DNA of 22,722 nucleotides from Simkaniaceae bacterium (GTDB lineage: Bacteria > Chlamydiota > Chlamydiia > Chlamydiales > Simkaniaceae), in NCBI GenBank assembly GCA_050248615.1, contig JBFWSA010000032.1, forward strand, positions 1-22,722, written 5' to 3'. Both the position numbers and the translations under genes were made by a program. The notes under the pieces were generated by a model. The model was not told the origin of the DNA. It did no database searches and saw only the letters and a program-made list of their open reading frames with translations. This document shows positions 3,381 to 22,377 of this stretch, piece by piece (position 1 is the stretch's first letter; every line of letters begins with the position of its first letter).

Positions 3381-3427
3381 AAGTTCTTTTCTAATCTATT
3401 CCTATATGGTATGAGGAAATTATTTAA

Positions 3428-3587
3428 CGCGAATTTGGATTAGATCTCTATGAGAAGGTTTAGATTTTTGAAGAGACTTTCAGAAAAATCTGCGAAGGAG
3501 ATAGCCAAAGTGCTATCTTCGAGCAGTTTTTCCTGGAAAGATCACAAAAAGATAGACATTCTCATAGAGATCTAATCCAAATTCGCG
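3428..3587. mobile_element. palindromic MITE-like element, family A, intact (160 bp)
   Basis: Perfect 29-bp terminal inverted repeat CGCGAATTTGGATTAGATCTCTATGAGAA; imperfect pairing continues to the apex GATAGC-CAAAGT-GCTATC; flanked by direct repeat TTATTTAA (3420-3427, 3588-3595). Confidence 0.85.
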
Positions 3588-3607
3588 TTATTTAATGTGA
3601 GGTTTGG

Positions 3608-4099
3608 ATGAAAAGTTTTTTTTGTATGTTAGCAACAGGTTTAGCCTTTTGCAGTTTATCTTATGCCCAGTATGGTTCTTCTCAAGACTACTCAAACTAT
3701 GGGCAATCTAATGGTTCTCAAAACCAGTATCCCCAATATGGACAAGGGCAGCAACAGCAGCAGCAGCAACCTCAGGTTCAGGGATCGGGATCGGATTGTG
3801 ATCATTTGTCGCAGCAAGAGCAGCAATTTGCTTCGCAACTCAGTGTGATGCACCGCACCATGTTTTGTCGCCATTTTTCGGTTTCACAACGCATTGAAGC
3901 CATGACCCTTGCCTCTTCTCAAGTCCAAGGACTTCAAGGGCAGCAGAGTTCCATTTCCCCTGATGAAGCAGTCGAAATCGTGATGAAAAATACGCGGACA
4001 AATGGAGCCCAGGATCAGCAGCCACAGTCTCCACAAGATGGGAGTCAGTATAGCTATCCCTCAGGGTCCTCTTCAAGCAACCCCTATAGCAATTATTAA
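3608..4099 (+). CDS. secreted Gln/Ser-rich hypothetical protein
   Basis: Signal-peptide-like N-terminus MKSFFCMLATGLAFCSLSYA, GAGG SD, low-complexity Q/S/Y ends around a central two-Cys helical segment. Confidence 0.75.
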   Translation: MKSFFCMLATGLAFCSLSYAQYGSSQDYSNYGQSNGSQNQYPQYGQGQQQQQQQPQVQGSGSDCDHLSQQEQQFASQLSVMHRTMFCRHFSVSQRIEAMTLASSQVQGLQGQQSSISPDEAVEIVMKNTRTNGAQDQQPQSPQDGSQYSYPSGSSSSNPYSNY

Positions 4100-4980
4100 G
4101 AAAGCGCAGGGTAAGTAAAGCAGAAGAAATGGATCACGTTGAATAGGTAGTGGCAGAAGATGCTACTTTCAATGGAACGTGTCATTTGGTAAACACTTCC
4201 ATAGATTAGACTGGCAATAAATGTCAGGGAAAGGAAAGTGAAGTCGTGTACAAAGGCAAAGTGGAGGAGTGCAAAGAGTAGGGAAACGACAATCACGCTG
4301 ATCGGTCCTCCCCATTTTGCATGGATATACTCAGAAATCTCTCTCTGGAGAAACCCGCGAAAGAAAGCCTCTTCAGGAATCGTTACAAAAAAGAGATTAG
4401 TCACGAGCCAAATAGCCGAAATATGGGGTAGTTTTAAGTCGATATCAACAAGATGGAGATAGAGGGCTAGAAGCATCAAAAGCATCACCCCTAAAGCGGT
4501 GAGGGCGAGCGTTTTTAGAGCAATACCGCGCCAATGCATCCGAGAGTGGATCAGAGGAATCGTGAGAGCTAAGGGGAGAAAGCCGATAAAGGGTTTATCG
4601 TAATTGAGATAAAGAGAATAGGGGTAGGCGTTTTGACTGATTTGCAAATCGGAAGCGAGTTTCCAGTTATGAAATCCCGGAAAAAAATGTCCCATCAGGG
4701 CAATAGAGACGAAAAAGGCCATGAAAATGGCAAGTAACCGCGAAATGCCTTTTGTTTCTGCGGATAAGAAAAGATGGGCCCCACATAAAATTCCCAAGGC
4801 AACAAAGATTTTAAAGTCGATGAGCTTTCCTAAAAAAGCAAAGATAAAAGAGACGGCTAGAAACGATCCCCAAAGCCACGGTTTTCTGTGAATCCATAAG
4901 CTGATAAAGGCAAGGATGAGGGCTACAAATGCTAGAGAAGCAATGGGGTGATGAATCAAGGTAAAGTAGCTAAACTTCAT
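4096..4980 (-). CDS. CPBP/CAAX-family intramembrane glutamic endopeptidase
   Basis: Multi-TM protein with EEAFFRG, FALLH and HYLFN motifs. Confidence 0.88.
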   Translation of the reverse strand: MKFSYFTLIHHPIASLAFVALILAFISLWIHRKPWLWGSFLAVSFIFAFLGKLIDFKIFVALGILCGAHLFLSAETKGISRLLAIFMAFFVSIALMGHFFPGFHNWKLASDLQISQNAYPYSLYLNYDKPFIGFLPLALTIPLIHSRMHWRGIALKTLALTALGVMLLMLLALYLHLVDIDLKLPHISAIWLVTNLFFVTIPEEAFFRGFLQREISEYIHAKWGGPISVIVVSLLFALLHFAFVHDFTFLSLTFIASLIYGSVYQMTRSIESSIFCHYLFNVIHFFCFTYPALS

Positions 4981-6407
4981 AACTTCTGAGAGATGACTTT
5001 TTCGCTCAAGTATTCGTAGATGCCGCTAGATCCCCCTTCACGGCCAAAACCTGAGGCTTTGACTCCTCCAAAAGGGAGCTGTGCACAACTCGGAGCACCA
5101 TCATTGAGGCCAACGATACCAAACTCCAGTTTAGAAGTCACATGTTCTGCACGTTTTAACCCTTCTGTGAAGACATAAGCAGCGAGGCCGTAGGGTGTTT
5201 GATTCGCAAGATGGATCACTTGATTTTCCTCTTCAAATTCCATAATGGCAACAACAGGCCCAAACGTTTCTTCATTAAAAATGAGCATGTCATGAGTGGC
5301 TCCCGTTAAGATTTCAGGTTCATGGGGCTTTTTCGCTCCCAGGTGGGCTTTAGCCCCTTTTTTTAGGGCATCTTCAATATGGGCACGTACTTTTGCTTGA
5401 GAATCTGAATGAAGTGTATGGGTAAAATCGGTTTCTTTTTCTCGAGGGTCTCCCACTTTCATGCTGCGTACTTTGTGAATCAATTTTTCAAGAAAGGGGG
5501 AGAGGATTTTTTTGTGAACATAGAAACGGTTGGCACAAATGCATGTTTGTCCCCCGTTACGAAACTTGGCAATCAAAGCCCCTTCGACCGCTTTTTCTAA
5601 ATCGGCATCATCAAAAATAATAAAGGGGGCATGTCCCCCCAGTTCCATCGTGACTTTTTTAAGCGTCTGGGCACTAACTCCATAAAGGTATTTCCCGACA
5701 TCGCAGCTTCCTGTAAAGGAAAGCTTCCGGATATGAGGGGCTCCGAGGAGGGCATCCCCAATTTTTTTACCATCCCCCACGAGGACGTGAATCGATTCTT
5801 TCGGAATGCCTCCCTCATGACAAAGGGCTCCTAAAATGAGACCCGATAAAGGGGTGGTGGAGCTGGGTTTACAAATGACAGGGCATCCAGCTGCCAAAGC
5901 GGGAGCCACTTTGCGAGCCGCCATGGCGATGGGAAAATTCCAAGGGGTGATGATGGCAGCAGCTCCTAAGGGCTCATACATGACATAGAGTCTTTTATCG
6001 CGAAAATGGGAGGGAATTTCCTTGCCGTAAACCCGCTTGACTTCTTCTGCAAACCAACTGAAGTAGCTCGCTGCATAGTGAACTTCTGCTTGAGCTTCTT
6101 TAAGAGTTTTTCCCATCTCCATTGTCATCAGTTCTGAGAGCCTGTCCATGTGATGAAAAAGGAGAACAGAAATCTTATGTAAAATGGCTGCCCGTTCATA
6201 AGCGGTCATTTCTTTTAGGGGATTCTTTTTAACCGCTTCAATCGCTTCAGCAATCTCTCCGTCCGTTGCTAAATAAAGCGTTTGCCATTCTTTTTGAGTA
6301 ACAGGGGAAACAAGTACTCTTTTTTCCCCACTTTTTTTCCACGTGCCATTAACAAAGGATCCAAAAGTTTCTTGATCAGAGTCGCTCTTTTCCATAATAT
6401 CACTCAT
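4977..6407 (-). CDS. gabD: NAD(P)-dependent succinate-semialdehyde dehydrogenase (ALDH family); alternative start at 6395
   Basis: ITPWNFPIAM, FTGS, MELGGHAP, KFRNGGQTCICAN, EETFGP, PFGGVKASGFGREG. Confidence 0.85.
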   Translation of the reverse strand: MSDIMEKSDSDQETFGSFVNGTWKKSGEKRVLVSPVTQKEWQTLYLATDGEIAEAIEAVKKNPLKEMTAYERAAILHKISVLLFHHMDRLSELMTMEMGKTLKEAQAEVHYAASYFSWFAEEVKRVYGKEIPSHFRDKRLYVMYEPLGAAAIITPWNFPIAMAARKVAPALAAGCPVICKPSSTTPLSGLILGALCHEGGIPKESIHVLVGDGKKIGDALLGAPHIRKLSFTGSCDVGKYLYGVSAQTLKKVTMELGGHAPFIIFDDADLEKAVEGALIAKFRNGGQTCICANRFYVHKKILSPFLEKLIHKVRSMKVGDPREKETDFTHTLHSDSQAKVRAHIEDALKKGAKAHLGAKKPHEPEILTGATHDMLIFNEETFGPVVAIMEFEEENQVIHLANQTPYGLAAYVFTEGLKRAEHVTSKLEFGIVGLNDGAPSCAQLPFGGVKASGFGREGGSSGIYEYLSEKVISQKL

Positions 6408-6742
6408 ATAGCTAGATTTGTTTAAAATTGGGATGATTTAGGTGAGATATTTTTGATGGATTTTGGCTTCTTAAAATCGAAAACATTGTCCATCAGACAA
6501 GAACCTATCCAGTATTTAAGACATTTTTTTATTCCACGCTTTTTGGCATCTTTTCCATTTTCATTTTGACCTCTTGTCTCATGGACAATGTGATCAAAAT
6601 GAAAATGGAAAATCTGTTCAAAAATCGAAGAAATCAAATAAATCCTTAAATACTGGATAGGTTCAAGGAGAGATTTTAAGAAATCGAAAGACAACGGAAA
6701 GATCCACATAAATCATCCCAATTTTAAATAAATTTAGCTATA
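6407..6742. mobile_element. palindromic MITE-like element, family C (170 bp without its insert), interrupted by a family E element
   Basis: 34-bp TIR TATAGCTA(G/A)ATTT(G/A)TTTAAAATTGGGATGATTTA with 2 mismatches (6407-6440 / 6709-6742); inner stem TTCTTAAAATC/GATTTTAAGAA. Confidence 0.85.
6502..6663. mobile_element. palindromic MITE-like element, family E (162 bp), nested in C
   Basis: Perfect TIR AACCTATCCAGTATTTAAG; inner stem TTTTCCATTTTCATTTTGA/TCAAAATGAAAATGGAAAA; flanking direct repeat CAAG (6498-6501, 6664-6667). Confidence 0.85.
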
Positions 6743-6746
6743 AACC

Positions 6747-7451
6747 ATGTTAAGAAAAAAAGAAAATGAATTAGAGTGGCTCGAGTTTGAGCTTTTGCAA
6801 CAATTTCCCGAAGTGAAACACGGGGTATTTTTGCATGTAGATTTGGGGGAACGCGGAAAGGTTGAAGATCAAGAGCGTGTTGCTGACCATTTTGGTGTTC
6901 CAACAATGAAGCTCAAACAGGTGCACAAAGACGCTCTTTTTGAGGTGAAAAAAACCCAGAAAAAACTCTCTTATCGGACAGGATTTGATGGAATGGTCAC
7001 AAAAGAAAAAAATGTAGCTCTTCTGATTCGTCATGCCGATTGTCAAGCGACCTTATTTTATGATCCCTTTCACAAAGCCCTTGCAAATGTTCACTGTGGT
7101 TGGCGAGGAAGTACGCTTAACATTTACGAAAAAACCGTAAAAAAAATGGAGAAGCTTTATGGAACCCATCCAAAAGATCTCCATGTATGTATTGGCCCGA
7201 GCTTAGGCCCCGAGTCTGCAGAATTCATTCACTATAAAAAAGAACTCCCTCCTCACTTTTGGGCTTTTCAAGTACGTCCTACCTATTTTGATTTTTGGGC
7301 CATTAGTGAAAAGCAGCTAAAGGATCTAGGGGTTCCTTCAACTCAGATAGAAATTGCCCGCATCTGTACCAAACAAAATACGGAAGATTGCTTTTCCTAT
7401 CGGCGCAATAAAAACACCCCTCATCATGGCACCCTCGCATTCATGATTTAG
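6747..7451 (+). CDS. pgeF: PgeF/YfiH-family polyphenol oxidase-like protein (peptidoglycan editing factor / purine nucleoside phosphorylase)
   Basis: LKQVH, DGMVT, HADCQ, NVHCGWRG, IGPSLG, CT...FSYRR motifs. Confidence 0.88.
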   Translation: MLRKKENELEWLEFELLQQFPEVKHGVFLHVDLGERGKVEDQERVADHFGVPTMKLKQVHKDALFEVKKTQKKLSYRTGFDGMVTKEKNVALLIRHADCQATLFYDPFHKALANVHCGWRGSTLNIYEKTVKKMEKLYGTHPKDLHVCIGPSLGPESAEFIHYKKELPPHFWAFQVRPTYFDFWAISEKQLKDLGVPSTQIEIARICTKQNTEDCFSYRRNKNTPHHGTLAFMI

Positions 7452-7496
7452 ATCACCTATGAAGGGGTATATCCAAACAACTTCAAAAGTTGCCCA

Positions 7497-7525
7497 TTGT
7501 CAAATTTAGAACTAGCTCCTATAAT
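7497..7525 (+). promoter_or_regulatory. putative sigma66/sigma70-type promoter of the rmlC operon
   Basis: TTGTCA-N17-TATAAT, 9 nt before ATG 7535. Confidence 0.65.
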
Positions 7526-7534
7526 TTGGTCTCT

Positions 7535-8065
7535 ATGGAGATTAAAGAACTAAGTCTAAAAGGGGCTAAACTGATTAAGCCCTTGGTTCATTGGGATTCA
7601 CGGGGCTTTTTTTTAGAGAGCTTTCAAGAAGAGCGTTACCAAGATCTAGAGAGTAGATTTGTTCAGGATAATCATTCCTTTTCCAAAAAAGGGGTGATCC
7701 GGGGGATGCATTTTCAGTCGGATCCGGGACAAGCCAAGCTCGTTCGTGTCGCTATAGGAAAAATTTATGATGTGATTGTCGATATCCGTCCGGATTCACC
7801 GACCTTTGGAAAATGGCAAGGGGTCACTCTAGATGATCAGGAACATCAACAATTATTTATACCCGTGGGATTTGCTCACGGGTTTTGTGTTTTAAGTGAT
7901 GAGGCGCATGTGCTTTATAAAACTAGTACCCCATTTTGTGCAGAAACGGAAAGGGGATTTCGCTTTGATGATCCAGAAGTGGGAATAGAGTGGCCCCTCA
8001 AGGATCCGATTGTTTCGGAGCGGGATCAAAATACTCCCTATTTTTACGAACTGAGGTGGTCATGA
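7535..8065 (+). CDS. rmlC: dTDP-4-dehydrorhamnose 3,5-epimerase
   Basis: DSRGFFLE, FVQDNHSFS, RGMHFQ, QAKLVR, GFAHGF. Start moved to MEIKEL at 7535. Confidence 0.93.
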   Translation: MEIKELSLKGAKLIKPLVHWDSRGFFLESFQEERYQDLESRFVQDNHSFSKKGVIRGMHFQSDPGQAKLVRVAIGKIYDVIVDIRPDSPTFGKWQGVTLDDQEHQQLFIPVGFAHGFCVLSDEAHVLYKTSTPFCAETERGFRFDDPEVGIEWPLKDPIVSERDQNTPYFYELRWS

Positions 8066-8907
8066 GACTGTGGATTATTGGAAAACGTGGATTGCTTTCC
8101 CAAGCCTTTCAACGTAAATGTCAAGAAAAAGGGATCGATTATCTAGCAACTTCCCGAAAAGAGGTAGATCTGCAAGATGTAAAGAGTGTGCGTGCCCAAT
8201 TTGAAACCCTTTTGTTTACCCATGTCATAAACTGTAGTGGGTATACAGCTGTTGATCGTGCAGAAGAGGAGAGTGAGGCAGCTCATGCCCTCAACGGTGA
8301 GGCTGTAGAACTTTTAGCACGCTTAGCGAAGCAGCATGGGAAAAAAATGATTCATTTTTCGACAGACTATGTTTTCGATGGAAAGGCAGAAGAGTATTCA
8401 GAAGGAGCCGAAACAGCCCCCCTTTCTGTCTATGGAAAATCCAAGGAAAGAGGAGAGAAAAAGCTTTTCGAGCAGTATCCCGAGGCCTGCTTAGTGCGTA
8501 CTTCGTGGCTTTTTGGGAGAGACGGAAGAGATTTTGTGAAGAAGATGGTCGAGATGATGCAAAGTCAGGAAGACATTCGTGTGGTAAGTGATCAGAAGGG
8601 ACGTCCCACCTATGCCGATGATTTAGCTGAAGCGGTCCTCTCGATATTAGATCAGTCGGGGATTTTTCACTTTGCGAACTCCGGACCTGTTTCTTGGCAT
8701 GAATGGGCTCTAGCAATTCGTGAAAAATTGCGAGCGAAAAATGTTCCCTTACGCTGTCAAAAGATCCATGCGGTTTCGACAGAGGCGCATGGCGCTAGAG
8801 CGCCTCGCCCTAAATCCTCAGTATTAGCTACCGAAAAGTTTGATACCCCCCATTGGGAAGCCGGGTTAGAAGAGGTTTTATCAAGTGTTATCTCATCCCT
8901 TAAATAG
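8062..8907 (+). CDS. rmlD: dTDP-4-dehydrorhamnose reductase
   Basis: YTAVDRAE, STDYVFDG, VYGKSK..GE, RTSWLFG, DQKGRPT. Start MRLWIIG at 8062 gives an ATGA overlap with rmlC. Confidence 0.92.
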   Translation: MRLWIIGKRGLLSQAFQRKCQEKGIDYLATSRKEVDLQDVKSVRAQFETLLFTHVINCSGYTAVDRAEEESEAAHALNGEAVELLARLAKQHGKKMIHFSTDYVFDGKAEEYSEGAETAPLSVYGKSKERGEKKLFEQYPEACLVRTSWLFGRDGRDFVKKMVEMMQSQEDIRVVSDQKGRPTYADDLAEAVLSILDQSGIFHFANSGPVSWHEWALAIREKLRAKNVPLRCQKIHAVSTEAHGARAPRPKSSVLATEKFDTPHWEAGLEEVLSSVISSLK

Positions 8908-9877
8908 CCACATCTTAGTGACGGGAGGGGCGGGTTTTATGGGGTCCTCCTTTATTCGCTATCTATTGGAAAAGGATGGCTTTACAGGGCGTATTACGAA
9001 TCTAGATCTTTTGACCTATGCAGGGAATTTAGACAATGTTGCCTCAGTGGAAAAAGACGGGCGGTATCAATTTATTCAGGGGGATATTCGCAAGGCAGAT
9101 CTTTTAGAATCCTTAGAGGATCCCCCCGATATCATTGTCCATTTTGCAGCTGAGACCCATGTTGATCGGAGCATCAAAAGTCCCCAGGTCTTTTTAGAAA
9201 CGAACGTTTTGGGAACTTATCACCTTTTGGAGTATGTGAGAAAGCATCCTGCAACACACTTTCATCATATTTCTACAGATGAGGTGTATGGGGCATTAGG
9301 CCTAGAAGGGGTGTTCTCAGAAAGCTCTCCCTATCGTCCCAACTCTCCCTATTCAGCCTCAAAAGCGAGCTCCGATCATCTCGTGCGTTCTTATGCAGAG
9401 ACCTATGGTATTTCCACAACCCTTTCCCACGCCAGTAATAACTATGGTCCTTGCCAGTATGCGGAAAAATTTATTCCCCTCATGATTGAGCACGCTATGC
9501 AAAGAAAACCCTTACCCGTTTATGGAAGGGGGGAAAATAGGCGCGAGTGGCTCTTTGTCGCAGATCATTCCGCAGCGATCTATGCGATTTTATCTCACGG
9601 AAAAAAGGGAGAAGTCTATAATGTGGGCGGAGGAACCGAGCTGCGTAATATCGATCTTTTGCATAAAATTTTAGAACTGATGGGAGATGCGTCATTAAAA
9701 AGCTTGATTACCTATGTTGAAGATCGCCCCGGCCATGATTTTCGGTATGCGATGCAAGGGGATAAGATCAGAGCTTTGGGGTGGCAGCCTCAATGGTCCT
9801 TAGAAGAGGGTCTCAAAGAAACCATAAGGTGGATGCATGAAAAAAGTATGTGTTATTCCAGCAAGGCTAGCCTCTAG
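8885..9877 (+). CDS. rmlB: dTDP-glucose 4,6-dehydratase
   Basis: LVTGGAGFMGS, LTYAGN, FAAETHVDRSI, ISTDEVYG, PNSPYSASKA, DRPGHDFRY. Confidence 0.95.
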   Translation: MLSHPLNSHILVTGGAGFMGSSFIRYLLEKDGFTGRITNLDLLTYAGNLDNVASVEKDGRYQFIQGDIRKADLLESLEDPPDIIVHFAAETHVDRSIKSPQVFLETNVLGTYHLLEYVRKHPATHFHHISTDEVYGALGLEGVFSESSPYRPNSPYSASKASSDHLVRSYAETYGISTTLSHASNNYGPCQYAEKFIPLMIEHAMQRKPLPVYGRGENRREWLFVADHSAAIYAILSHGKKGEVYNVGGGTELRNIDLLHKILELMGDASLKSLITYVEDRPGHDFRYAMQGDKIRALGWQPQWSLEEGLKETIRWMHEKSMCYSSKASL

Positions 9878-10580
9878 CCGTTTTCCTCGTAAAGTTCTTA
9901 GCATGTTAGGAGAAAAACCCATGCTTCAATGGGTTTGGGAAGCGGCAACAAGTTCAGAGATCTTTGATGAAGTGACGTTTGCCATCGATGATTATGAAAC
10001 AGCACGCCTTATCGATAGTTTTGAGGGGAATCACATCATGACTTCTCCAGAGTGCCTCAGTGGGACCGATCGCTTAGTTGAATTACATACTTCAGGAAAA
10101 CTTCAAGGAGATATTTGGGTTAACTGGCAAGGAGATGAACCCTTTATTCGACGTGAAATGATTGAAGATCTTTTGCAAACAGCACACGAAAAAAAATTTG
10201 ATATTTACTCTCTCAAAAAAAAGATTAACAACGAAGAGTGCGTTGAAGACCCCAATACAGTAAAAGTAGTGACCAATCTTGAAGGACGCGCCCTCTATTT
10301 TTCCCGCTCTCCCATCCCTTACTACCGTGATGTCATCGACTTCGAAGAAACTCCCTACTACAAACATATCGGGATCTATGCTTATTCAGAAGAAGCACTC
10401 TCAAAAATCGCTACCTTTTCCCCGACACCTCTAGAACTAGCAGAACAGCTTGAACAACTCCGTTTTCTAGAAAATGGGCTCTCCCTTCAAGTTCACAACA
10501 CCGAACATGAAACTTTAGGGATTGACACCCCAGAAAACTTAGCTCAGGCAATCGACAGGATCTCTAGCCAAATCGTCTAA
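9837..10580 (+). CDS. kdsB: 3-deoxy-manno-octulosonate cytidylyltransferase
   Basis: IPARLASSRFP, SGTDR, QGDEP, ALYFSRSPIP, KHIGIYAY, EQLEQLR. Confidence 0.94.
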   Translation: MKKVCVIPARLASSRFPRKVLSMLGEKPMLQWVWEAATSSEIFDEVTFAIDDYETARLIDSFEGNHIMTSPECLSGTDRLVELHTSGKLQGDIWVNWQGDEPFIRREMIEDLLQTAHEKKFDIYSLKKKINNEECVEDPNTVKVVTNLEGRALYFSRSPIPYYRDVIDFEETPYYKHIGIYAYSEEALSKIATFSPTPLELAEQLEQLRFLENGLSLQVHNTEHETLGIDTPENLAQAIDRISSQIV

Positions 10581-10583: not shown

Positions 10584-10622
10584 ATAGCTAAATCACCCCA
10601 TTTTTAAACTGCTTTAGCTATA
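10584..10622. repeat. collapsed remnant of a family C element
   Basis: 10589-10622 matches the C right arm (6709-6742) at 28/34 positions and retains ATAGCTAAA/TTTAGCTAT ends. Confidence 0.7.
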
Positions 10623-11734: not shown

Positions 11735-11853
11735 TACAGCTAAATTTATTTAAAATTGGGATGATTTATGCGAATCTTTCCGTTGTTCTTCGACTTCTTA
11801 AAATCTCTCCTTGTCTAATGGACAATGGTCTCAATTAAATAAATTTAGCTATA
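11735..11853. mobile_element. family C element, inverted relative to 6407, one arm largely deleted
   Basis: Reverse complement aligns to 6484-6501 joined to 6668-6742 without the E insert; ends TACAGCTAAATTTATTTAA / TTAAATAAATTTAGCTATA. Confidence 0.85.
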
Positions 11854-11871
11854 CACGAAAGAATCTCTCTG

Positions 11872-11900: not shown

Positions 11901-11909
11901 TTCTGGCAA

Positions 11910-14074: not shown

Positions 14075-15240
14075 GCTTTCTAGAAACCCTAGCCCCCCAT
14101 TATAAAAGTCGCGATCAGTGGAAGCAAAAAGCTTGGGAAAGGCTTCACCTTAAAGGATTTCCCAATCGCAAGTGGGGAGCTTTTCAATATGTTCCCTTAA
14201 AAGCTCTCTACGAAACATCCTTTATCCCTCTAACGAAAGCAACACCTGCAATTGAAAAGAAAAAAAATACTTGTGTTTTTGTTAATGGAGAATTTCGCCC
14301 AGAGTTATCTCAAGTTGAGCAGATCATCTGTTTACCCTTATCCGAAGCGATCCGTTCTTATGGAATGCTATTACATAAAAACTGGGTGCAAATGCTTGCC
14401 GAGGAAACCAATCCTTTTTTCCTTCTTAATCATGCTCTTTATGAAGAGGGGCTTTTTCTTTATGTCCCTCCCCAAGTGCAGTCCTCAATAGAGTGGCTTT
14501 TTCTTACAGTAGGAGATAGCACAATCCATATGCCGAAAATGGAAGTGCATTTAGGAAAAGGAGCTGTGTTAAACATTCAGTCTCACCACCGCGGAGAAGG
14601 AAGCTATTGGCATAATGAGTCCTTAAGTATGTCGCTAGATGAAGGGGCGCGCCTTTTTCTTGAAGAGAAAATCTCCCACTCCGCTGAAGCCTTTGGGTTT
14701 CATAGCAAACGGTTAAAGTTAAAACGGGATGCAAAATTCGAATGTCTTGTTCTTTCAAAGGGAGCAAAAGTAGAACGCCATGATATCGCTGCTGTTCTAA
14801 AAGGGGAAAATGGGGAAGTAGATCTAAAAGGTCTCTCTCTACTTTCCGAAAAAAGAGAAATGCATCATCATCTTTTTGTAAAACATGAGGCTCCTCATAC
14901 GCGTTCTAATCAACATTATAAAACGGTGCTAAGTGATCGTGCGCGTTCGAGTTTTGAAGGGAAGATTTATGTGGAAAAAGAGGCGCAAAAAACAGAGGCC
15001 TATCAGCTCAATAACAATTTACTGCTGAGCCCCAAAGCGCAAGCCATGAGTAAACCTAACTTAGAGATTATGGCAGATGATGTGAAAGCCTCCCATGGAG
15101 CGACGTGTACTCAACCTAAAGCCGATGAAATGTTCTATTTACGAACCCGCGGCTTAAGTGAAAAAGAGGCCAAGCGCCATCTTGTAAAAGGCTTTTGTCG
15201 TGAACTCATGAATGACGAGGTGATTGATGCAAGTTTTTGA
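14071..15240 (+). CDS. sufD: Fe-S cluster assembly protein SufD
   Basis: FEGKIYV, AQKTEAYQLNNNLLLS, KPNLEIMADDVKASHGAT, FYLRTRG. Confidence 0.93.
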   Translation: MSFLETLAPHYKSRDQWKQKAWERLHLKGFPNRKWGAFQYVPLKALYETSFIPLTKATPAIEKKKNTCVFVNGEFRPELSQVEQIICLPLSEAIRSYGMLLHKNWVQMLAEETNPFFLLNHALYEEGLFLYVPPQVQSSIEWLFLTVGDSTIHMPKMEVHLGKGAVLNIQSHHRGEGSYWHNESLSMSLDEGARLFLEEKISHSAEAFGFHSKRLKLKRDAKFECLVLSKGAKVERHDIAAVLKGENGEVDLKGLSLLSEKREMHHHLFVKHEAPHTRSNQHYKTVLSDRARSSFEGKIYVEKEAQKTEAYQLNNNLLLSPKAQAMSKPNLEIMADDVKASHGATCTQPKADEMFYLRTRGLSEKEAKRHLVKGFCRELMNDEVIDASF

Positions 15241-16465
15241 TGTGTGGAGAGTGCGGGAAGATTTTCCCATGCTAAAAAAAACCATGAATGGAAGACCTCT
15301 TGTCTATCTTGACTCAGCAGCAACAGCACATAAGCCCCATAGCGTTATCCAGGCGATGCATCATTTTTACGAGAAAGAATATGGGACAGTCCATCGCGCT
15401 GTCTATGAACTGGCTGCCCACTCTACAGAAATGTACAGTGAAGTGCGCGGTAAGATGCAACGTTTTATCCATGCCCGCGACGAAGAAGAAATCATTTTTA
15501 CTCGAGGAACGACGGAATCGATCAATTTAGTGGCCTATTCTTTTGGAAAAGCGTTCATTCAAGAAGGGGATGAAATCATTATTTCTGAGATGGAACATCA
15601 TTCCAACATTGTTCCTTGGCAAATTTTATGCAAAGAGTCTGGCGCCAAGCTAAAATTTATCCCCATCAATGAAAAAGGGGAGCTTCGCTTAGATGTTTTT
15701 GATGAAATTTTATCGGAACGAACCAAGCTTGTGAGTATTGCACACATTGCCAATTCTACGGGAACTCTCAATCCCATCGAAGAAATCATCCAAAAAGCCC
15801 ATGCTTTTGGTGCAAAGGTGATGATTGATGGAGCCCAAGCAGTCTCTCACCGCCTCATCGATGTGCAAGCCCTCGATGTCGATTTTTATGCCTTTTCAGG
15901 GCATAAAATGTATGGCCCCACCGGTATTGGTATTCTCTATGGAAAGAGAGCCCTTCTCAATGAGATGCCCCCCTTTATGGGAGGAGGAGATATGATTGAA
16001 GAGGTGTATATGGATCATTCCACCTTTCAAGAAGCTCCATTGAAGTTTGAAGCAGGAACCCCCTCTATTGCAGAAGTCATTGGATTGGGGGCAGCGATTG
16101 ATTATATTGAATCTATTGGAAGAGAAGCCATTGATCTATGGCAAAACAAATTACTACGTCATGCAACAGAAAAACTCCAAGAGATCAAAGGGCTGCGCAT
16201 TATTGGTTCTGCAAAACAGAAAGGACCCATTATTAGTTTTGCTCTAGAGGACCTCCATCCTCTTGACTTGGGAACGATTTTAGGCCTCAAAGGAATTGCG
16301 ATCCGAACTGGACACCTGTGCGCCCAACCGACACTCCGACGCTTTGGACAAGAGGCCCTTGCACGCCTCTCCTTTGGAATTTATAACACCCATGATGAAA
16401 TCGATCTCTGCGTCCACGCCATCAAAGAAGCCGCCGTACTCCTTAAACCAGAAATGTCTTACTAA
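15224..16465 (+). CDS. sufS: cysteine desulfurase SufS
   Basis: YLDSAATA, EHHSNIVPW, FSGHKMYGPTG, RTGHLCAQP. Confidence 0.95.
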   Translation: MMQVFDVWRVREDFPMLKKTMNGRPLVYLDSAATAHKPHSVIQAMHHFYEKEYGTVHRAVYELAAHSTEMYSEVRGKMQRFIHARDEEEIIFTRGTTESINLVAYSFGKAFIQEGDEIIISEMEHHSNIVPWQILCKESGAKLKFIPINEKGELRLDVFDEILSERTKLVSIAHIANSTGTLNPIEEIIQKAHAFGAKVMIDGAQAVSHRLIDVQALDVDFYAFSGHKMYGPTGIGILYGKRALLNEMPPFMGGGDMIEEVYMDHSTFQEAPLKFEAGTPSIAEVIGLGAAIDYIESIGREAIDLWQNKLLRHATEKLQEIKGLRIIGSAKQKGPIISFALEDLHPLDLGTILGLKGIAIRTGHLCAQPTLRRFGQEALARLSFGIYNTHDEIDLCVHAIKEAAVLLKPEMSY

Positions 16466-16739
16466 CGCAAATTGAGACCATTGCAAAAGTCATTCCATTC
16501 ATCTAAGTTGATCTATTTTGATTAAATTTTTTTCTCTTTTTCGCTCAGCTCTCTAGAGCTGACCTCAAAAGCTGAGAAAAATTTTCTCTAAAAAATCTCA
16601 ACTCATCTGAATGAAAGCATTTTTGCAACGGTCTCAAATTGCGGATTAGATCTCTATAAAAACACCCATCTTTTTGGGATCTTTATAGGAAAAACTGCTT
16701 AAAGATAGCGCTTTGGCTATCTCCTTCGCAGATTTTTCT
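16466..16739. mobile_element. family A element, diverged and truncated, inverted relative to 3428, interrupted by a family B element
   Basis: 16643-16739 aligns to the reverse complement of the 3428-3587 copy (GGATTAGATCTCTAT...GGAAAAACTGCT...CTTTGGCTATCTCCTTCGCAGATTTTTCT); its first bases CGCAAATT are at 16466-16473. Confidence 0.75.
16474..16635. mobile_element. palindromic MITE-like element, family B (162 bp)
   Basis: TIR GAGACC(A/G)TTGCAAAA, imperfect pairing to the apex TCAGCTC-TCTA-GAGCTGA; flanking direct repeat AAATT (16469-16473, 16636-16640). Confidence 0.85.
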
Positions 16740-17844
16740 AAAAATCGAATCGAGCTCTTAGAGTGAGCCCTTGGAGATTAAGATCAAATCGATCGTAGTG
16801 ATCGCTGATACTAATATAAAGTGTTTGATTGATCCAGATCTGACTTTCCCATCCTCCTTGAAGTAAGAAGTGGTAGCGTCCACAACCGAAATAGCTCTCA
16901 GCTCTAAGTCCAATAGCAAACTCCAGTACAGGTTTTACTAATCTGAGATGATCTTGAATACTGACTGTTGTAATCTCATTCGATTGTGGTTGGTTGGGTT
17001 CTAAAGTCTCAAAGGTATCTTTACGATCGATGTCATAATGGAGCCAGATCGCTGTTAGGGCGATATTTCCATAAATGCTAAAGATCTTGGAGAATTGCCA
17101 TGAAGTGTTAAGTCCTGTACGCATCCCCACTCCCCAGAGAGAATGATCGAAGCGGACAGAATAATCGAAAGTAGGAACTTGGGGGAGTAACTGAATAGGA
17201 ATGGTTTCATAGAAGACATTATAGTCTTGTTTTTGCCATGTTCCCTTTACACCAACAAAGGGGCGGAGTTTAAGAGTGCGACTCACATAGTAGTTTCTTC
17301 CGAGTTCTAAATCACCCACTTGGTAGTGAAGATCAAAATGGGCATGGGCGCGTTCAAAAGGGGGAATCGTCAGTCCCGAAAAAGAGGGGGTACGGATTTC
17401 AAATGCAGGCTGCAAAAATTGCGAACGCTTGCTGTCACCCACATTGGTATAAAACCAGGTATACTGCAACGTCATATCCCAACAACCATGGCAGAAACTC
17501 CATCCTAAACCCACTTTGAAACCCGGGTCCCAAGTCCAATCTACACTTTGGACTTCCCCTTTATTAGGTCCTTGATGGGTTGTTAAATTTCCCATCCCTG
17601 TTTTTGCATAGGTAAGAGTGTCTAAGCGCGCAGTCCAATAGATAAAATCGGCAAAAATCGCGAGATCCATTCCATTTTTGACTCGGGGGCCCGCGCAAGG
17701 GGTGATTTGATTTAAGGGTTTATCTTGATGTTGCTCAAGAGAGGAAACACGGTTTTCTAGTCCCCTCATCCGAATTTCACTCTCCGCTTGCAATAGGAAT
17801 GTGGGGAGTAAGCTTAAAATAAAAAACGCGCGCAAAAACTTCAT
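16738..17844 (-). CDS. MOMP-like / Lpg1974-family porin
   Basis: Signal peptide, ITPCAGPRV, ADFIYWTA, PGFKVGLG, DLELGRNY, GWESQIW, C-terminal RFDF. Confidence 0.88.
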   Translation of the reverse strand: MKFLRAFFILSLLPTFLLQAESEIRMRGLENRVSSLEQHQDKPLNQITPCAGPRVKNGMDLAIFADFIYWTARLDTLTYAKTGMGNLTTHQGPNKGEVQSVDWTWDPGFKVGLGWSFCHGCWDMTLQYTWFYTNVGDSKRSQFLQPAFEIRTPSFSGLTIPPFERAHAHFDLHYQVGDLELGRNYYVSRTLKLRPFVGVKGTWQKQDYNVFYETIPIQLLPQVPTFDYSVRFDHSLWGVGMRTGLNTSWQFSKIFSIYGNIALTAIWLHYDIDRKDTFETLEPNQPQSNEITTVSIQDHLRLVKPVLEFAIGLRAESYFGCGRYHFLLQGGWESQIWINQTLYISISDHYDRFDLNLQGLTLRARFDF

Positions 17845-17928
17845 CGGAATCTCACCTTATAAGATTATGAGTGAAACACTATGAAACGAGATTTGCAATT
17901 GATTTTCAAGAAAAACTTTAGCTCTGAC

Positions 17929-18312
17929 TCAAGCGTAAGAGTCGATCACAATCCGAACAAAAATAGAGAAGATCTGAGAAGTGGTATAAACATCACTCAG
18001 GTAACTACGGGGAAGGTGATAGTCCAACTTGTTGAATAGATAAGAGGTTACATAGGGAGTCAATGCATAAAGGACAACAAAGGTAATTTTGGGAACTAAG
18101 GGATAGTTTTCATCAATAGCGCCGATTTTCCCGATGTAATAACAGAGGCTGATATTCTGGACATCAACAACTGTTTGTGTGAAACCATAAGCTAACGCAG
18201 TCTCCATAGGAACTCCATGGTCTCGGAGAAGATTTCCCCCCACGCAGGGAATCATCCGAGAACCCACTAGAATTCCACAAGTCATTGCAAGATCTCTTAG
18301 GGGAGCTGCCAT
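17929..18312 (-). CDS. small hydrophobic hypothetical protein
   Basis: 127-aa ATG-started ORF that fills the gap between two porins on the same strand; no recognisable motif. Confidence 0.55.
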   Translation of the reverse strand: MAAPLRDLAMTCGILVGSRMIPCVGGNLLRDHGVPMETALAYGFTQTVVDVQNISLCYYIGKIGAIDENYPLVPKITFVVLYALTPYVTSYLFNKLDYHLPRSYLSDVYTTSQIFSIFVRIVIDSYA

Positions 18313-18356
18313 GGTAAATCCAACTTTTGAAGTTGTTTGAGTATACCATAAAAAAG

Positions 18357-19385
18357 TTAAAAATCAAAGCGAAGCTTAGCCGTTAATCCATTGAAGGTTA
18401 AGTCCCCATTATTTTGCCCCCAAAAGGAAATAAATCTTCCATAATGGATCCAAATTTGACTCTCCCACCCTGCTTGCATAGAAAAGTGATACCGCTCCTT
18501 TTGAAACCACCATTCCCCTTTAAGCCCTAGCATCATCTCGATGTTAGCGATAATAGAGTTGGGATCGTTAGAGATATTGACCGTAGTTGTTGCAGGGGAC
18601 CCATCAATCTGAAGGCGATCCCGTCTGTTCACATCGTAATCATTCCAAAGACCTGCAAAGGCGATGTCACTTACAATACTCCACCCTTTATAGAAGGTCC
18701 ATGTGGCATTTGCTCCCATCCGAATACCGATTCCCCAACTGTCATGATCTTGATTAGTTGTTCCTGTTCCGGGAAGAGGTCCTAAGTTACCTAGGGTCAC
18801 AGAATTTGCAATATAGCGCGTATTCCAATCCTGATAAATCCAGCTTCCTCTGAGTCCAAAAAAGAGGCGTGTGGCTAAGAAGCGGCTTAAAAAGAAATTA
18901 CGCCCGAGTTCCAAATCTAAAACATTAAACATCAGATCCCAGTGACTTCTCGCGGCTGTGATCGCTGAGATTTGTGTTGTTGTCAGATTATTAAAGGTTA
19001 AAGAGATCGGAACGATACCGCCACCTGCGCTTTTGGCTCGATCTGTTGAACTGCTCTGCAGCCAAGTATAGCGCGCATAGAGATCCCACCCATCATGACA
19101 AGGATAGAAACCAACCCCTACACGAAAGCCAGGCTTCCAAGGGTACCCTACTGTATGGATCTTCCCTGAAGAGGTTACCGCAGTCCCTGGAGTGACTGAT
19201 ATTCCTGTTGTGGCGTAGTTAAGTCTCTCCTGGATAGCCTTCCACCACAAAAACTCTGCAGTAATGAAGACATCTGCTCCCTTTTTTACAAAAGGGCCCG
19301 CAGGAGGTGTAATAACCTGCTGATTTTCTGTAAACACCTTGAATATTAATAAGAAACAGACAAGGAAAAGAAGTTTTCCTTTCAT
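18357..19385 (-). CDS. MOMP-like / Lpg1974-family porin
   Basis: Start MKGKLL at 19385 with G-rich SD; ITPPAGP, AEFLWWKA, DGWDLY, DLELGRNF, C-terminal RFDF. Confidence 0.88.
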   Translation of the reverse strand: MKGKLLFLVCFLLIFKVFTENQQVITPPAGPFVKKGADVFITAEFLWWKAIQERLNYATTGISVTPGTAVTSSGKIHTVGYPWKPGFRVGVGFYPCHDGWDLYARYTWLQSSSTDRAKSAGGGIVPISLTFNNLTTTQISAITAARSHWDLMFNVLDLELGRNFFLSRFLATRLFFGLRGSWIYQDWNTRYIANSVTLGNLGPLPGTGTTNQDHDSWGIGIRMGANATWTFYKGWSIVSDIAFAGLWNDYDVNRRDRLQIDGSPATTTVNISNDPNSIIANIEMMLGLKGEWWFQKERYHFSMQAGWESQIWIHYGRFISFWGQNNGDLTFNGLTAKLRFDF

Positions 19386-19449
19386 GGTTTCCCCCACTTC
19401 TTCTTCTTTCTTCTCTTTAGCAAATAAGGACAAATACCATCAACAAGAT

Positions 19450-19484
19450 AAAAAAAAACTGAGCACCGAAGTGCCCAGTTTTTT
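19450..19484 (-). terminator. intrinsic terminator after the 19510-20646 porin
   Basis: Minus strand reads AAAAAACTGGGCAC-TTCG-GTGCTCAG-T9: a C(UUCG)G tetraloop stem followed by a U tract. Confidence 0.85.
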
Positions 19485-19509
19485 ACGAGAAAAATTCCGA
19501 AGACTTTAT

Positions 19510-20646
19510 TTAGAAATCGAAACGGAATTTTAAGTTAAGTCCTTGAAGACTTAAATCTTGAGTAGCTTCATCAACGAGCTCCACAAAACGTCCCCAGTTT
19601 AACCATACTTGCTGTTCCCATCCTGCTTGAACTGCAAAATGGTAGTTATCATCGTAAAACCAGATTTCCCAGCGCAAGCCAAGTTCGAGTTCACCAATGT
19701 ATTTAGCTGTGTAATGGTTGTCATTATCTAGGTTAACAACACGAGTAGAGATACCTGTAGCGGTGTCTTCTAGATTGTCATGTCTAATCAGATCATGGTA
19801 ATTTGTCCATAGTGTAGTCCAAGCGAAGTCGCCATAAAAGCTCCAGCATTTAGACATATACCAAGAAACATTTAAACCACCACGAACACCAACTCCCCAA
19901 ACATCGTAATGTTGGTGCATAACATAAGGACCTGAAACAGGAACGCTAGGATTTCCTTCTAATTCAAAGGAATTTCCAGTAAAGTATGCTTTTAGATCGG
20001 TATCCTGCCAAGTACCTTTAAGACCAATAAAAGGTCTCATAGTCAAGAATTGGCTGACATAAAAATTACGTCCAAGTTCAAGATCAATCACGTTAAAGTG
20101 AAGATCCCAATTAGCTTTTGCACTGTTGGCGAATACAAGAGGTCCATCTCCGCCTAGCGCAAATGTGTTTGCAATCACACCGTTGTCACTAGAGAGACTA
20201 TTACTGTTGCTAGGGCGTAGCCAAGTGTATTGAGAATAGAGATCCCATCCATCGTGACTTAGGTTAAGACCTAATCCCACTTTAAAACCAGGAGCCCAAT
20301 CATCTCCAACACTTTTTACTTTTCCTTTTGAGGCTGATTGAAAAGCAGGTAAATTATCTCCTACTTTTACTCCAGTAAAAGCGTATTCAGTTCCTTCTTG
20401 AACAGCTTTCCACCAAATGAAATCGGCTGTGATGAAAACATCTGCACCATGTGCGACACGAGGTCCGGCGTTAGGTGTAATTTCTCTGTACGATCCGCGT
20501 TGATACGTTCCCTGTCCAGATTGTTGCATGCTTCCGCTTGATTGCGAACTGCCATTATACTGATAAGTATCAGCAAATGCAGAGCCAAACAAGCTCACAC
20601 ACATTGCCCCTACAAGAGGCCAAAGTTTTTTGAGTTGCATTTCCAT
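19510..20646 (-). CDS. MOMP-like / Lpg1974-family porin, possibly the major expressed copy
   Basis: Signal peptide ending AFA, ITPNAGPRV, ADFIWWKA, DGWDLY, DLELGRNF, GWEQQVW, RFDF; own promoter, GGGAG SD and terminator. Confidence 0.9.
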   Translation of the reverse strand: MEMQLKKLWPLVGAMCVSLFGSAFADTYQYNGSSQSSGSMQQSGQGTYQRGSYREITPNAGPRVAHGADVFITADFIWWKAVQEGTEYAFTGVKVGDNLPAFQSASKGKVKSVGDDWAPGFKVGLGLNLSHDGWDLYSQYTWLRPSNSNSLSSDNGVIANTFALGGDGPLVFANSAKANWDLHFNVIDLELGRNFYVSQFLTMRPFIGLKGTWQDTDLKAYFTGNSFELEGNPSVPVSGPYVMHQHYDVWGVGVRGGLNVSWYMSKCWSFYGDFAWTTLWTNYHDLIRHDNLEDTATGISTRVVNLDNDNHYTAKYIGELELGLRWEIWFYDDNYHFAVQAGWEQQVWLNWGRFVELVDEATQDLSLQGLNLKFRFDF

Positions 20647-20791
20647 TACTTGTTTCTCCCTGTTACAGAAATGATAAAATTTATAGTTCTCTTTCCTTTT
20701 TAACTGACTAAGCCAGAATTATGCAAGTAAAATGGTGTTAACCACCACTAAACATACACGCAACTGAGTTTTTTCAGCTTTTCCAATTTGG

Positions 20792-20820
20792 AATATATGA
20801 AACTCTATTGAGCGATTCAA
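20792..20820 (-). promoter_or_regulatory. putative promoter of the 20646 porin
   Basis: TTGAAT-N17-TATATT on the minus strand, implying a ~140-nt 5' UTR. Confidence 0.45.
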
Positions 20821-20985
20821 ATGCAAGAAAAAAATATTCAAAGTGGTTTAGATAGGCTAAGAATTTTCCACTGTTAGAGTTAAGTGTTACCTGTTTTTCT
20901 TGCTATGTTAAAGATATAGCTAAAGTTGTTGGAGTATAAATTATGGGGAAGGGGAGGCTTTTGTGCGAATGTCACTTTTTCCAGG

Positions 20986-21049
20986 AGGCCCCGACCAAAT
21001 CGGTGTCAACACGAACTTCTTCGATGACATGTTCTGCTTTGCGGGGCCT
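20986..21049. repeat. GC-rich imperfect hairpin downstream of the 21073 porin
   Basis: AGGCCCCG/CGGGGCCT outer stem enclosing TGTCA..CGAA-CTTC-TTCG..TGACA. Confidence 0.5.
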
Positions 21050-21072
21050 TATTTCCGCTTTTCTATCGCGTA

Positions 21073-22146
21073 TTAAAAGTCAAAACGGACCTTAATCGTG
21101 AGCCCTTGAAGGATAAGGTCTCCATTATTGGCAGCATCGTTTTGGGTGACTACGAGATGGTTAAAGTTGATCCAGACTTGCTCTTCCCATCCTGCTTGGA
21201 TAAGGAAGTGGTAACGGTCATCCATAAACCACCACTCACCCCGCAGGCCAATGCCAAATTCTAAGAGGGCTTTAAGGGTGTGGAATTCGTTTTCTGTTCT
21301 TAAGACTGTGATGTCTGTGTTGAGGGGAGTTCCACCCCCATTTTGGGAGTCGTTGCGGATATCATTGCGTACGCTATCAAACTGGGACCAAAGGGCTGTG
21401 AGTGCAAAATCTCCATAGAAGCTCCAGTTGCGATGGACATACCAGGCTGTATTGAGTCCGGAGCGGAGTCCAATCCCCCAAAAATCTTGATCATTGCGCA
21501 TACGGAGCTGAGAGACGATGATTTGGTCAGCAAAATCATAATTGACGTGGTAATCTTGATCGATCCAGCTTCCTTTGAATCCAATAAAAGGTCTTAAGGT
21601 GAGAAACTGACTGATGAAATAATTACGTCCCAAACTGAGATCGATAGCATTAAAGTGAATATCCCATTTTGTATGGGCGTTATTGACGCTGGTAGCATCA
21701 AGATTTACAATATTCCATAGAGGGACGTGATTTAATCCTGTGACAGAGTCAGATGCACTGGAATGGAGCCACGTGTATTCGGCGTATACATCCCATCCAT
21801 CATGGGGAAGGTTGAGTCCCACTCCTGCTTTAAAACCGGGATCCCAATCCCAATCAGGATAGTGGACGCTTCCTTTGCCCGCATTCGTGATTCCATCGCC
21901 TAACCCAGTCATGACATAACCTAGGTTATCCATGCGTGCTGTCCAATAGATAAAATCAGCGGTAACAAATACATCGATTCCATTATCTACACGGGGGCCT
22001 GCATTGGGAGTGATGGGGCGCGGCATTTTTTCAGCAATTTTCCCTGCAACATCGTGGGAAGTGGGAGCAGGGGGGCCATCATAGGTTCCTGAGAAAATTT
22101 TAGAACTAATAATAAATAAAGGCACAAGCCACAGTTTGCATTTCAT
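21073..22146 (-). CDS. MOMP-like / Lpg1974-family porin
   Basis: Start MKCKLW at 22146 with GAGG SD; ITPNAGPRV, ADFIYWTA, DGWDVY, GWEEQVW, RFDF. Confidence 0.88.
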   Translation of the reverse strand: MKCKLWLVPLFIISSKIFSGTYDGPPAPTSHDVAGKIAEKMPRPITPNAGPRVDNGIDVFVTADFIYWTARMDNLGYVMTGLGDGITNAGKGSVHYPDWDWDPGFKAGVGLNLPHDGWDVYAEYTWLHSSASDSVTGLNHVPLWNIVNLDATSVNNAHTKWDIHFNAIDLSLGRNYFISQFLTLRPFIGFKGSWIDQDYHVNYDFADQIIVSQLRMRNDQDFWGIGLRSGLNTAWYVHRNWSFYGDFALTALWSQFDSVRNDIRNDSQNGGGTPLNTDITVLRTENEFHTLKALLEFGIGLRGEWWFMDDRYHFLIQAGWEEQVWINFNHLVVTQNDAANNGDLILQGLTIKVRFDF

Positions 22147-22175
22147 GAAAGACCTCAAAAATAAATTTTCTTATT

Positions 22176-22204
22176 AGGCTAAAGATTTAGAAACGAAATG
22201 TCAA
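22176..22204 (-). promoter_or_regulatory. putative promoter of the 22146 porin
   Basis: TTGACA-N17-TAGCCT, the same hexamers as upstream of sufB. Confidence 0.55.
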
Positions 22205-22226
22205 GAAGACTGATTCATTAAACAGG

Positions 22227-22377
22227 GCTAATACATTAAAATGACATTGAAGAAGTGATTCCTAGGAGGAAAGTTCAAGGCGCCTGATGCAGGCAACCCT
22301 GTTAAGGGTTGTCGAAGCAAGGCAACGTAGAAATTTTCCCTAAGAAAACTTCTTCAATGTCATTTTAATGCGTTAGC
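22227..22377. mobile_element. palindromic MITE-like element, family D (~150 bp)
   Basis: Perfect 23-bp IR CATTAAAATGACATTGAAGAAGT (22234-22256 / 22348-22370), extendable to GCTAA ends; apex GGCAACCCT-GTTA-AGGGTTGTC. Confidence 0.8.

Follow-up and report, generated by a model that had tools for sequence, protein, structure and literature searches.

Why should a single chlamydial contig carry so many intergenic hairpins that are alike in size and fold, despite their unrelated ends? The question is raised by the window, that is, the whole 22,722-bp stretch analysed here (positions 1-22,722 of contig JBFWSA010000032.1, Simkaniaceae bacterium, assembly GCA_050248615.1; genome G000). A first-pass annotation had described five hairpin elements in it, and all five lie at the positions given there or 1-4 bp off and do fold as long imperfect hairpins. 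In predicted DNA folding, families A, B, D and E reach z values of -14.2, -6.7, -11.1 and -14.6, respectively, which none of 200 shuffles equalled in any case; a separate fold gives the same kind of hairpin for the family C element. The number of copies in the window has to be raised from eight to ten, remnants included, and these belong to six families (Table 1).

Table 1 Hairpin elements, their remnants and the conserved D core in the window.
Feature	Positions	Strand	Length	Ends	Duplication	Remarks
Family A MITE	3427..3588	+	162 bp	ACGCGAATT	TATTTA (6 bp)	IS982-type ends
Family C MITE	6409..6740	+	166 bp without insert	TAGCTA	TA	IS630-type ends; split by E
Family E MITE	6501..6664	+	164 bp	GAACCTATCC	AA (2 bp)	IS5-type ends; inside C
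F0 one-end remnant	7468..7492	+		TACTCAAAC
Family C collapsed stub	10585..10620	.	36 bp			both ends present, core absent
Family C deletion derivative	11737..11851	-	115 bp
Second A copy, truncated	16465..16746 (16465-16473 + 16636-16746)	-				split by B
Family B MITE	16474..16635	+	162 bp	GAGACC	AAATT (5 bp)	weak IS5-family end match
F0 one-end remnant	18316..18345	+				single end
Family D MITE	22223..22381	+	159 bp	CAGGGCTAA	degenerate, 10 bp	ISAs1-type ends
Conserved D core	22270..22335	+				apical stem, symmetric GA-rich internal loop, two lower helices; common to elements with other ends

Genome-wide, gene-less hairpin elements of about 28 families give 329 matches and make up 1.9% of the DNA, so that the earlier description of elements that fill the intergenic space was overstated. 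Their lengths range from 158 to 173 bp, with 26 of the 28 families at 158–166 bp, which leaves no room for a transposase ORF, and no sign of one is seen. A whole-genome scan for inverted repeats detected 226 long hairpins, of which 133 measure 160–179 bp (duplicated target bases counted in), versus none when 1.4 Mb of the genome was shuffled locally. Each of the families A to E occupies 17–34 loci: 20, 17, 34, 20 and 33 for A, B, C, D and E, of which 11, 5, 15, 5 and 8 are full-length at 80% identity or more. Copies of E elsewhere are 99–100% identical. The largest family of the genome is F0, in which short core-less forms (49) outnumber full ones (39); such forms are common. Moreover, 18 of 169 copies are nested or abutting, and an F8/F11 chimera is found among the copies. 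Among the 66 scanned of 132 flanking ORFs there is no dedicated neighbour gene and the neighbours are unrelated; one of the 66 is a TnpB-like gene.

The duplications were settled by comparison of many copies. In family A the duplication is 6–7 bp (exact in 8 of 11 copies) rather than the 8 bp first read, and in E it is a variable 2 bp in 8/8 copies rather than CAAG. The TA of C (13/15 copies) and the 5 bp of B (4/5) are as annotated. For D, the duplication of about 10 bp is exact in one of five copies, agrees at 7–9 of 10 bases in three, and is poor in one. The D site is empty in three of four sequencing runs (three studies), where 169 bp are skipped, and the C/E element is missing from the orthologous gap in the congener G001. 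Exact empty sites were sought in this congener and not obtained, as it is too diverged (70%); its A site has been replaced together with the neighbour gene. Because their sides are short and they probably stem from paralogues, joints that skip 166 bp at E or parts of B are left uncounted. Overall, with a length below 500 bp, no transposase gene, TIRs flanked by a duplication, dispersed copies, and both filled and empty sites, the elements of all families are MITEs, and the earlier reading of a chlamydial genome that hosts a community of non-autonomous MITEs from several families holds.

As to what moves them, four of the window families (A, C, D, E) have TIRs that match an autonomous IS, and B matches weakly. 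The TIR of D is identical to that of the intact ISAs1 elements L180 and L181 over 22/22 nt, and the 10-bp duplication fits. The first 9–10 nt of A equal those of an IS982 relic that the source genome carries, with a 6-bp duplication, and also those of a PF13612 element (L389) in genome G295. The first 10 nt of E are shared with a broken IS5-type element of the source genome (C55) and with L224, with a 2-bp duplication. The IS630 elements L280 and L307 end in TA|TAGCTAA, as does C (14–16 of 24 nt), while B agrees with the IS5-family element L309 at 10/14 nt of the ends and in its 5-bp duplication. Outside the window families, F8 resembles IS5 over 13–17 nt with a TA duplication, F13 matches IS630 at 12/14, and the end of F22 is matched to a PF13612 element. 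Most families are without a partner among the IS tested. The annotated lack of a transposase is true of the window and does not extend to the genome, which contains relics of IS and a single intact element of the IS5 family. An intact transposase with ends matching A to E was sought in this genome and only relics were found, the matches coming partly from other genomes; no DUF772 transposase was found there, and C55 is the only long element with the families' own ends, other long pairs being chance or tandem. Since the ends and the duplication lengths both match IS, a cognate DDE transposase likely mobilises each family in trans.

On the other hand, only the terminal 9–22 bases match. The interiors of nine MITEs score 15–30 against 12 IS, which is the shuffle level (in 11 of 108 comparisons the score slightly exceeds that of the best among 15 shuffles), and five further MITE-IS pairs have no interior likeness. 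The elements are therefore not internally deleted versions of those IS in any simple sense. In the standard model (PMC3184786; PMC10969869), applied also to the Cardinium IS982 MITE (PMC9769881), each family arises when its own IS loses the interior; this would make size and fold convergent and the shared cores a product of later recombination between families. It agrees with the lack of any sequence link between the A, B, C/E and D cores and with the recombinant copies. The interiors, however, are unlike any cognate IS tested, the arms are self-complementary over the whole length as IS interiors are not, and in several Chlamydiota families one core lies under ends of the ISAs1, IS5 and IS66 types. 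No parent with such an interior was found among the 12 IS and five further pairs compared, and for D and F8 internal deletion is contradicted unless the core is present in parent IS outside the sample; we regard this origin as improbable.

The D core provides the clearest case of one interior under different ends. D, with ISAs1 ends, and F8, with IS5 ends, are each 159 bp long and align colinearly between bases ~23 and ~120. The D-core families score 63–70 against one another (z 20–26). The core is present in 20 of 301 genomes of the phylum and, in a scan of the collection, at 72 loci, within hairpins of at least ten end/duplication types, and 50 of the 59 well-defined ones are 155–184 bp long. 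Elements with GTAAG ends and 8-bp duplications occur in genomes whose IS66 ends in GTAAGC with 8 bp. IS256 was considered as the partner of the GGGTG-ended D-core elements and dropped, as the ends failed to match.

For the D core, the end-swapping suggested earlier is shown, and for C/E and B/F54 it is moderately supported. End promiscuity is not general, since the E core retains GAACC-type ends in nearly all relatives and the A core has mostly ACGCG ends. In a B-core search, most of the matches (17 of 300) are short and due to chance, and five loci were hairpins. The common ancestry once proposed for the five families is not shown: the D-core covariance model has no significant match to A, B, C or E, and most of the 378 family pairs score at shuffle level (median z 0.3).

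Ends could also change without any capture. Point mutations would then have carried a lineage of cores stepwise from one TIR to the next; copying between the arms would have made this faster, and selection would have come from the transposase that happened to be at hand. Length stays in register (159, 159 and 158) where ends differ, and the words GGGC and ATTAAAA are common to the ends of D, F61 and F8, so stepwise mutation instead of capture is possible. In addition, the two arms do change together, with 79 mirrored substitutions observed versus ~28 expected, and the E-class families hold one 10-nt end constant while the sequence directly behind it varies. Yet a 22/22 identity between the D and ISAs1 TIRs and at least ten unrelated end types on one core speak against this. 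Whole foreign segments do enter the arms, as seen in nested insertions, chimeras and a copied tRNA end. The last of these lies at a tRNA-Leu locus, where the 3' end of the tRNA recurs in inverted orientation as the far arm, and in two of four genomes a genome-specific variant is found on both sides. The mutational walk therefore appears rather unlikely to us.

What the families have in common is a one-strand fold with purine mismatches and tandem G·A. Purine-purine oppositions number 253 versus 38 pyrimidine-pyrimidine ones, a ratio inflated because the strand was picked by its purine excess. On that strand G-T exceeds A-C in 21 of 26 untied families, and GA/GA accounts for 19 of 61 2x2 loops. 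In the lower core helix of D, which lies outside the search pattern, double changes are found in all four pairs, with related sequences counted as independent. With the leading strand taken from GC skew, 118 of the 198 copies in the source genome (p 0.008) and 23 of the 28 in genome G012 (p 0.0009) have their purine strand on the C-rich strand; the bias is not significant in the 72-locus set (23/38, p 0.26) and is absent in F0 (24 vs 26). Relative to co-directional flanking genes the orientation is unbiased (47 vs 49), and copies between convergent genes (46) are not in excess of those between divergent ones (56). Covariation and strand asymmetry support selection on a single-strand structure, which the first-pass annotation had proposed. 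The one-strand fold, the replication-strand bias and the lack of a transcription bias would point to single-stranded DNA, a likelier target than RNA.

If the fold were instead kept for the host, the transcribed hairpin might act as a terminator, an RNase III site or an mRNA stability element, as proposed for Correia and ERIC; such functions of repeats are reviewed in PMC2229807. The G-U-compatible and G·A pairs on one strand would stabilise RNA as well, and one family member is kept behind tRNA-Leu in four genomes. Against this speak the missing orientation bias and convergent excess, sites that are not conserved, being missing in the congener and polymorphic, and neighbours that are unrelated. 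The side-hairpin loops are of 3 nt, 20 of 23 being GNA, a DNA-type loop. We consider a host role very improbable.

The structured, conserved core and the replication-strand bias also resemble what is generally known of single-strand transposition, and an HUH (Y1) nuclease could be imagined to recognise the core hairpin as in REP/REPIN, with the IS-like ends incidental. Duplication length, however, tracks the end type and not the core, no Y1 transposase (PF01797) match is found in the source genome (96% complete), and a TnpB-like gene adjoins the elements just once among 66 ORFs. This reading is extremely unlikely.

We therefore favour, with moderate confidence, that the 9–22 terminal bases and the duplications mark families moved in trans by cognate DDE transposases of the IS982, IS630, ISAs1 and IS5 types, and that at least one core has passed between unrelated IS ends, likely by tip replacement and copying to the other arm. 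A foreign tip may have been captured at one arm through nesting or chimera formation and then copied onto the opposite arm by fold-back copying. Selection for the one-strand fold and for a size of ~160 bp may act during a single-stranded, probably replication-linked step by which the element itself spreads or survives, and would not concern a host function. As the tips resemble several unrelated transposons and some families share a common middle, the elements likely persist by tip-swapping, hitch-hiking on whichever transposase is available. More tentatively, and at present doubtfully, the hairpin core could be a transposase-independent cis module. It would fold as single-stranded DNA at the replication fork into a ~160-nt rod whose tandem G·A joins the ends or recruits a host factor, and any DDE transposase with a grafted TIR would amplify it. 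Hairpin MITEs would then form a superfamily of their own, older than IS and only parasitic on them, with a single-strand step unknown for DDE enzymes.

Reviews derive bacterial MITEs from decayed insertion sequences (PMC3184786; PMC10969869). Here, two elements of equal length and common interior bear ISAs1 and IS5 ends, respectively, and about 28 families, which would rely on transposases of four or more families, have arrived at a single size and a single folding grammar. With such natural matched pairs, one can test directly how hairpin MITEs arose and what their interior does. The elements also add an overlooked 2% mobile fraction to environmental chlamydial genomes, which breaks assemblies and is polymorphic between strains.

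The seven matches from an Rfam scan of the window are weak and all far below the gathering score, and a plasmid collection gave only three matches of 19–20 nt, which is chance level. The E. coli element upstream of lpd, which we take to be ERIC, scores z < 2 against all 29 representatives, and in a D-core model search of K-12 the best E is 0.06, with matches off that element. By eye, two short boxes are alike in ERIC and these elements. TA at the termini, as in ERIC/IRU, is found in C and several other families and is lacking in A, B, D and E. A literature search found no description, though MITE lists in the supplements of PMC11602168 may include the elements unlabelled. REP/REPIN are Y1/RAYT-associated, GTAG/CGTC-tagged palindromes of 20–40 bp (PMC3733652), and the elements do not belong to them, differing in size and in their IS-type duplications and lacking the PF01797 partner. 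Correia/NEMIS of Neisseria, ERIC/IRU and YPAL/RU-2 of enterobacteria and bcr1 of Bacillus are intergenic repeats of 127–168 bp with a similar long stem-loop (PMC3184786; PMC2229807); judged by their descriptions, these repeats differ in having one family per end type. Correia/NEMIS are recognised by their own TIRs and by an IHF site within a 50-bp core. For Neisseria, E. coli and Anabaena, the account in Delihas 2011 (PMC3184786) gives MITE cores without sequence similarity. Several families in one genome are also known from the cyanobacterial MaeMITE, Nezha and Muzha (130–435 bp; PMC3184786), in whose descriptions, as compared here, we found no report of cores shared across IS or of convergence on 158–166 bp. 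The nearest relatives in kind are RUP/IS630-Spn1 of Streptococcus pneumoniae (PMC2229807) and the IS982-derived MITE of Cardinium cOegib (PMC9769881), which are likewise short and non-coding, have the TIRs and duplication of an autonomous IS, and are moved in trans. These, however, are described from one parent IS, whereas here the match is confined to the TIRs, the interior is an unrelated whole-length hairpin, and one core carries the ends of several IS families.

All five hairpin elements of the first-pass annotation (families A to E) are present in the window, and they fold far better than their shuffles. Its count of eight copies or remnants has to be raised to ten, in six families, with E nested within C and B within a second A copy. 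In the whole genome (2.04 Mb in 69 contigs, 96% complete, the window being one entire contig), a de novo inverted-repeat scan found 226 long hairpins, with 133 in the 160–179 bp range. In a control of 1.4 Mb of shuffled genome it found no long hairpin. From the clusters, 29 full-length representatives were taken; without the chimera F51 these stand for 28 families, whose 329 non-overlapping matches cover 39,080 bp, or 1.9% of the genome. With ends and duplications set by multi-copy comparison, the length between true ends is 158–166 bp in 26 of the 28 families, and 170 and 173 bp in the remaining two. The duplications differ: 6–7 bp for A (exact in 8/11 copies), 5 bp for B (4/5), TA for C (13/15), ~10 bp for D (exact in 1/5) and two variable bases for E (8/8). 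For family F0, ~28 copies genome-wide are reduced to a 31-bp stub with one common breakpoint at short direct repeats, likely by recurrent hairpin deletion.

Contigs of three of four sequencing runs (three studies) join across D, skipping 169 bp, i.e., 159 + 10. This empty site may reflect loss as well as recent gain, because the duplication of D in the window is degenerate (7/10 bases). In the syntenic congener G001, C/E is missing from the corresponding gap, and copies of E occur elsewhere at 99–100% identity.

DDE transposases act via their terminal inverted repeats (TIRs) and determine the duplication length. In the genome itself, an IS982 relic with a 6-bp duplication has ends starting like A, a broken IS5-type element has ends starting like E, and ISAs1 and IS630 are present as fragments; no intact cognate transposase for A–E was found in the assembly. 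The ends of its intact, single-copy IS5-family element are carried by none of the 28 families, and A-like cores in genome G261 have similar ends with 9-bp duplications. Relatives supply further partners: the TIR of intact ISAs1 elements with a 10-bp duplication is identical to that of the D family over 22 nt, IS5 elements match family F8 over 13–17 nt with TA, C, F0 and F13 share their end type with IS630 elements, A and F22 with PF13612 elements, and B is matched weakly by an IS5 element. The MITEs would thus be moved in trans by cognate DDE transposases.

The interiors show no such relationship. Nine MITE interiors scored 15–30 against twelve IS, equal to shuffle level (in 11 of 108 pairs the score was slightly higher than that of the best among 15 shuffles), and five further cognate MITE/IS pairs were likewise at shuffle level. 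Against each other, the interiors of D/F11, F8 and F61 score 63–70. D and F8, both 159 bp, are colinear from about base 23 to base 120. They differ at their ends, where ~22 nt form an ISAs1 TIR in D and an IS5 TIR in F8. The D core, the folded interior of these elements, occurs in 20 of 301 genomes of the phylum, in 16 of 149 by covariance model, and at 72 loci in a genome-collection scan, whose titles, taken as given, name chlamydial groups, 'Verrucomicrobia' or 'uncultured bacterium'. The hairpins around it carry ten or more combinations of end and duplication (CAGGG+10, GATAGTG+TA, GGGCGTG+TA, GTAAG+8, CAGCAG+9, CTTGAG+6-7, GGGTG+8-9, ACC+7, ACCCGC+TA and TACCATTT+3), and 50 of the 59 with a clear arm measure 155–184 bp, excluding two contig-end loci and twelve weak calls. 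The end-swapping proposed earlier is borne out for the D core, which sits under unrelated ends. Weaker cross-end links join C/E (IS630 versus IS5 ends, z 8.7), B/F54 (z 7.6) and F16/F56 (z 34); in relatives, the cores of E and A have for the most part retained their own ends. For the proposed common ancestry of all five window families, no joining sequence link was found. A link of these cores to ERIC was tested with a negative result. In one D-core element with GTAAG ends, the left arm is immediately followed by an IS66 copy; here an IS has been inserted within a MITE bearing related ends.

How could the ends change? A foreign end might be captured at one tip and then copied onto the other arm by fold-back. 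The main rival is that new ends were reached by a mutational walk of the TIR. We prefer capture and copying because the arms change in concert (79 mirrored substitutions versus ~28 expected), 18 of 169 full copies are abutting or nested, one copy is an F11/F8 chimera, and a tRNA end has been copied. The last case is a single-copy hairpin that follows the same folding grammar and lies on the 3' end of tRNA-Leu(TAA) in four genomes of two families. In two of them, the present genome (G000) and G076, the last 13–14 bases of the tRNA recur inverted as the far arm, with a genome-specific variant on both sides; the other two retain the core, not the copied arm. Possible readings of this hairpin are domestication of a copy, a family that targets tRNAs, or a trailer pairing with the acceptor strand.

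The fold itself appears to be under selection. Among 52 D cores, double changes occur in 11 of 15 pairs, and in all four pairs of the lower helix outside the search pattern (uncorrected for relatedness). Across the 28 families, one strand has 253 purine-purine against 38 pyrimidine-pyrimidine oppositions (the strand being picked by the same measure), 21 of 26 untied families have more G-T than A-C on this purine strand, and GA/GA makes up 19 of 61 2x2 loops, spread over 14 families. The purine strand lies on the C-rich strand, presumably the lagging one, in 118 of 198 copies here and in 23 of 28 D cores in genome G012 (after excluding 4 of 32 near skew switches); in the 72-locus set the bias is not significant (23/38), and transcription direction shows no relation (47 vs 49). 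Some cores have a side hairpin with 3-nt loops, GNA in 20 of 23 related copies. Fold covariation, one-strand mismatches, strand placement and GNA side loops together suggest that selection acts on the single-stranded form of the DNA, either when the element inserts or via strand-dependent loss.

Gene content places the genome among Simkania-like chlamydiae. The window genes include a type III export gene and five PF05150 (Legionella MOMP-like) outer-membrane paralogues, four in tandem. A secreted-looking ORF without a Pfam match is missing in G001, and its poly-Gln tract differs in length from run to run. The left part of the window differs by ~2% in other strains and the right part by 0–0.4% in most long pieces, suggesting a recombined block.

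Locations of features discussed in the text
Feature	Location	Details
Intact IS5-family element	G000:C9:40858-41925 (L012)	297 aa, 9-bp duplication
tRNA-Leu(TAA) hairpin	G000:C4:64812-64974 (L404/L405); also L406, L407, L408	163 bp
IS66 after MITE left arm	L239:1245-1290	
Gln/Ser-rich ORF	window 3608-4099	163 aa
PF05150 paralogues	window 10688-11710, 16738-17844, 18357-19433, 19510-20646, 21073-22158	
Left part	window 3545-10573	
Right part	window 11800-22722	

In the mostly open-access literature covered, which included passages of PMC3184786, PMC2229807, PMC9769881, PMC3733652, PMC10969869, PMC11602168, PMC2267715, PMC13229535 and PMC9723776, we found no paper that describes chlamydial MITEs or a core shared between the ends of several IS families. 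The families have their size and folding grammar in common. Overall, the multi-family MITE community is real, and its kind of element is already familiar; what is unusual is the modular form, in which hairpin interiors not derived from the cognate IS carry the ends of those IS, which belong to four or more transposase families.
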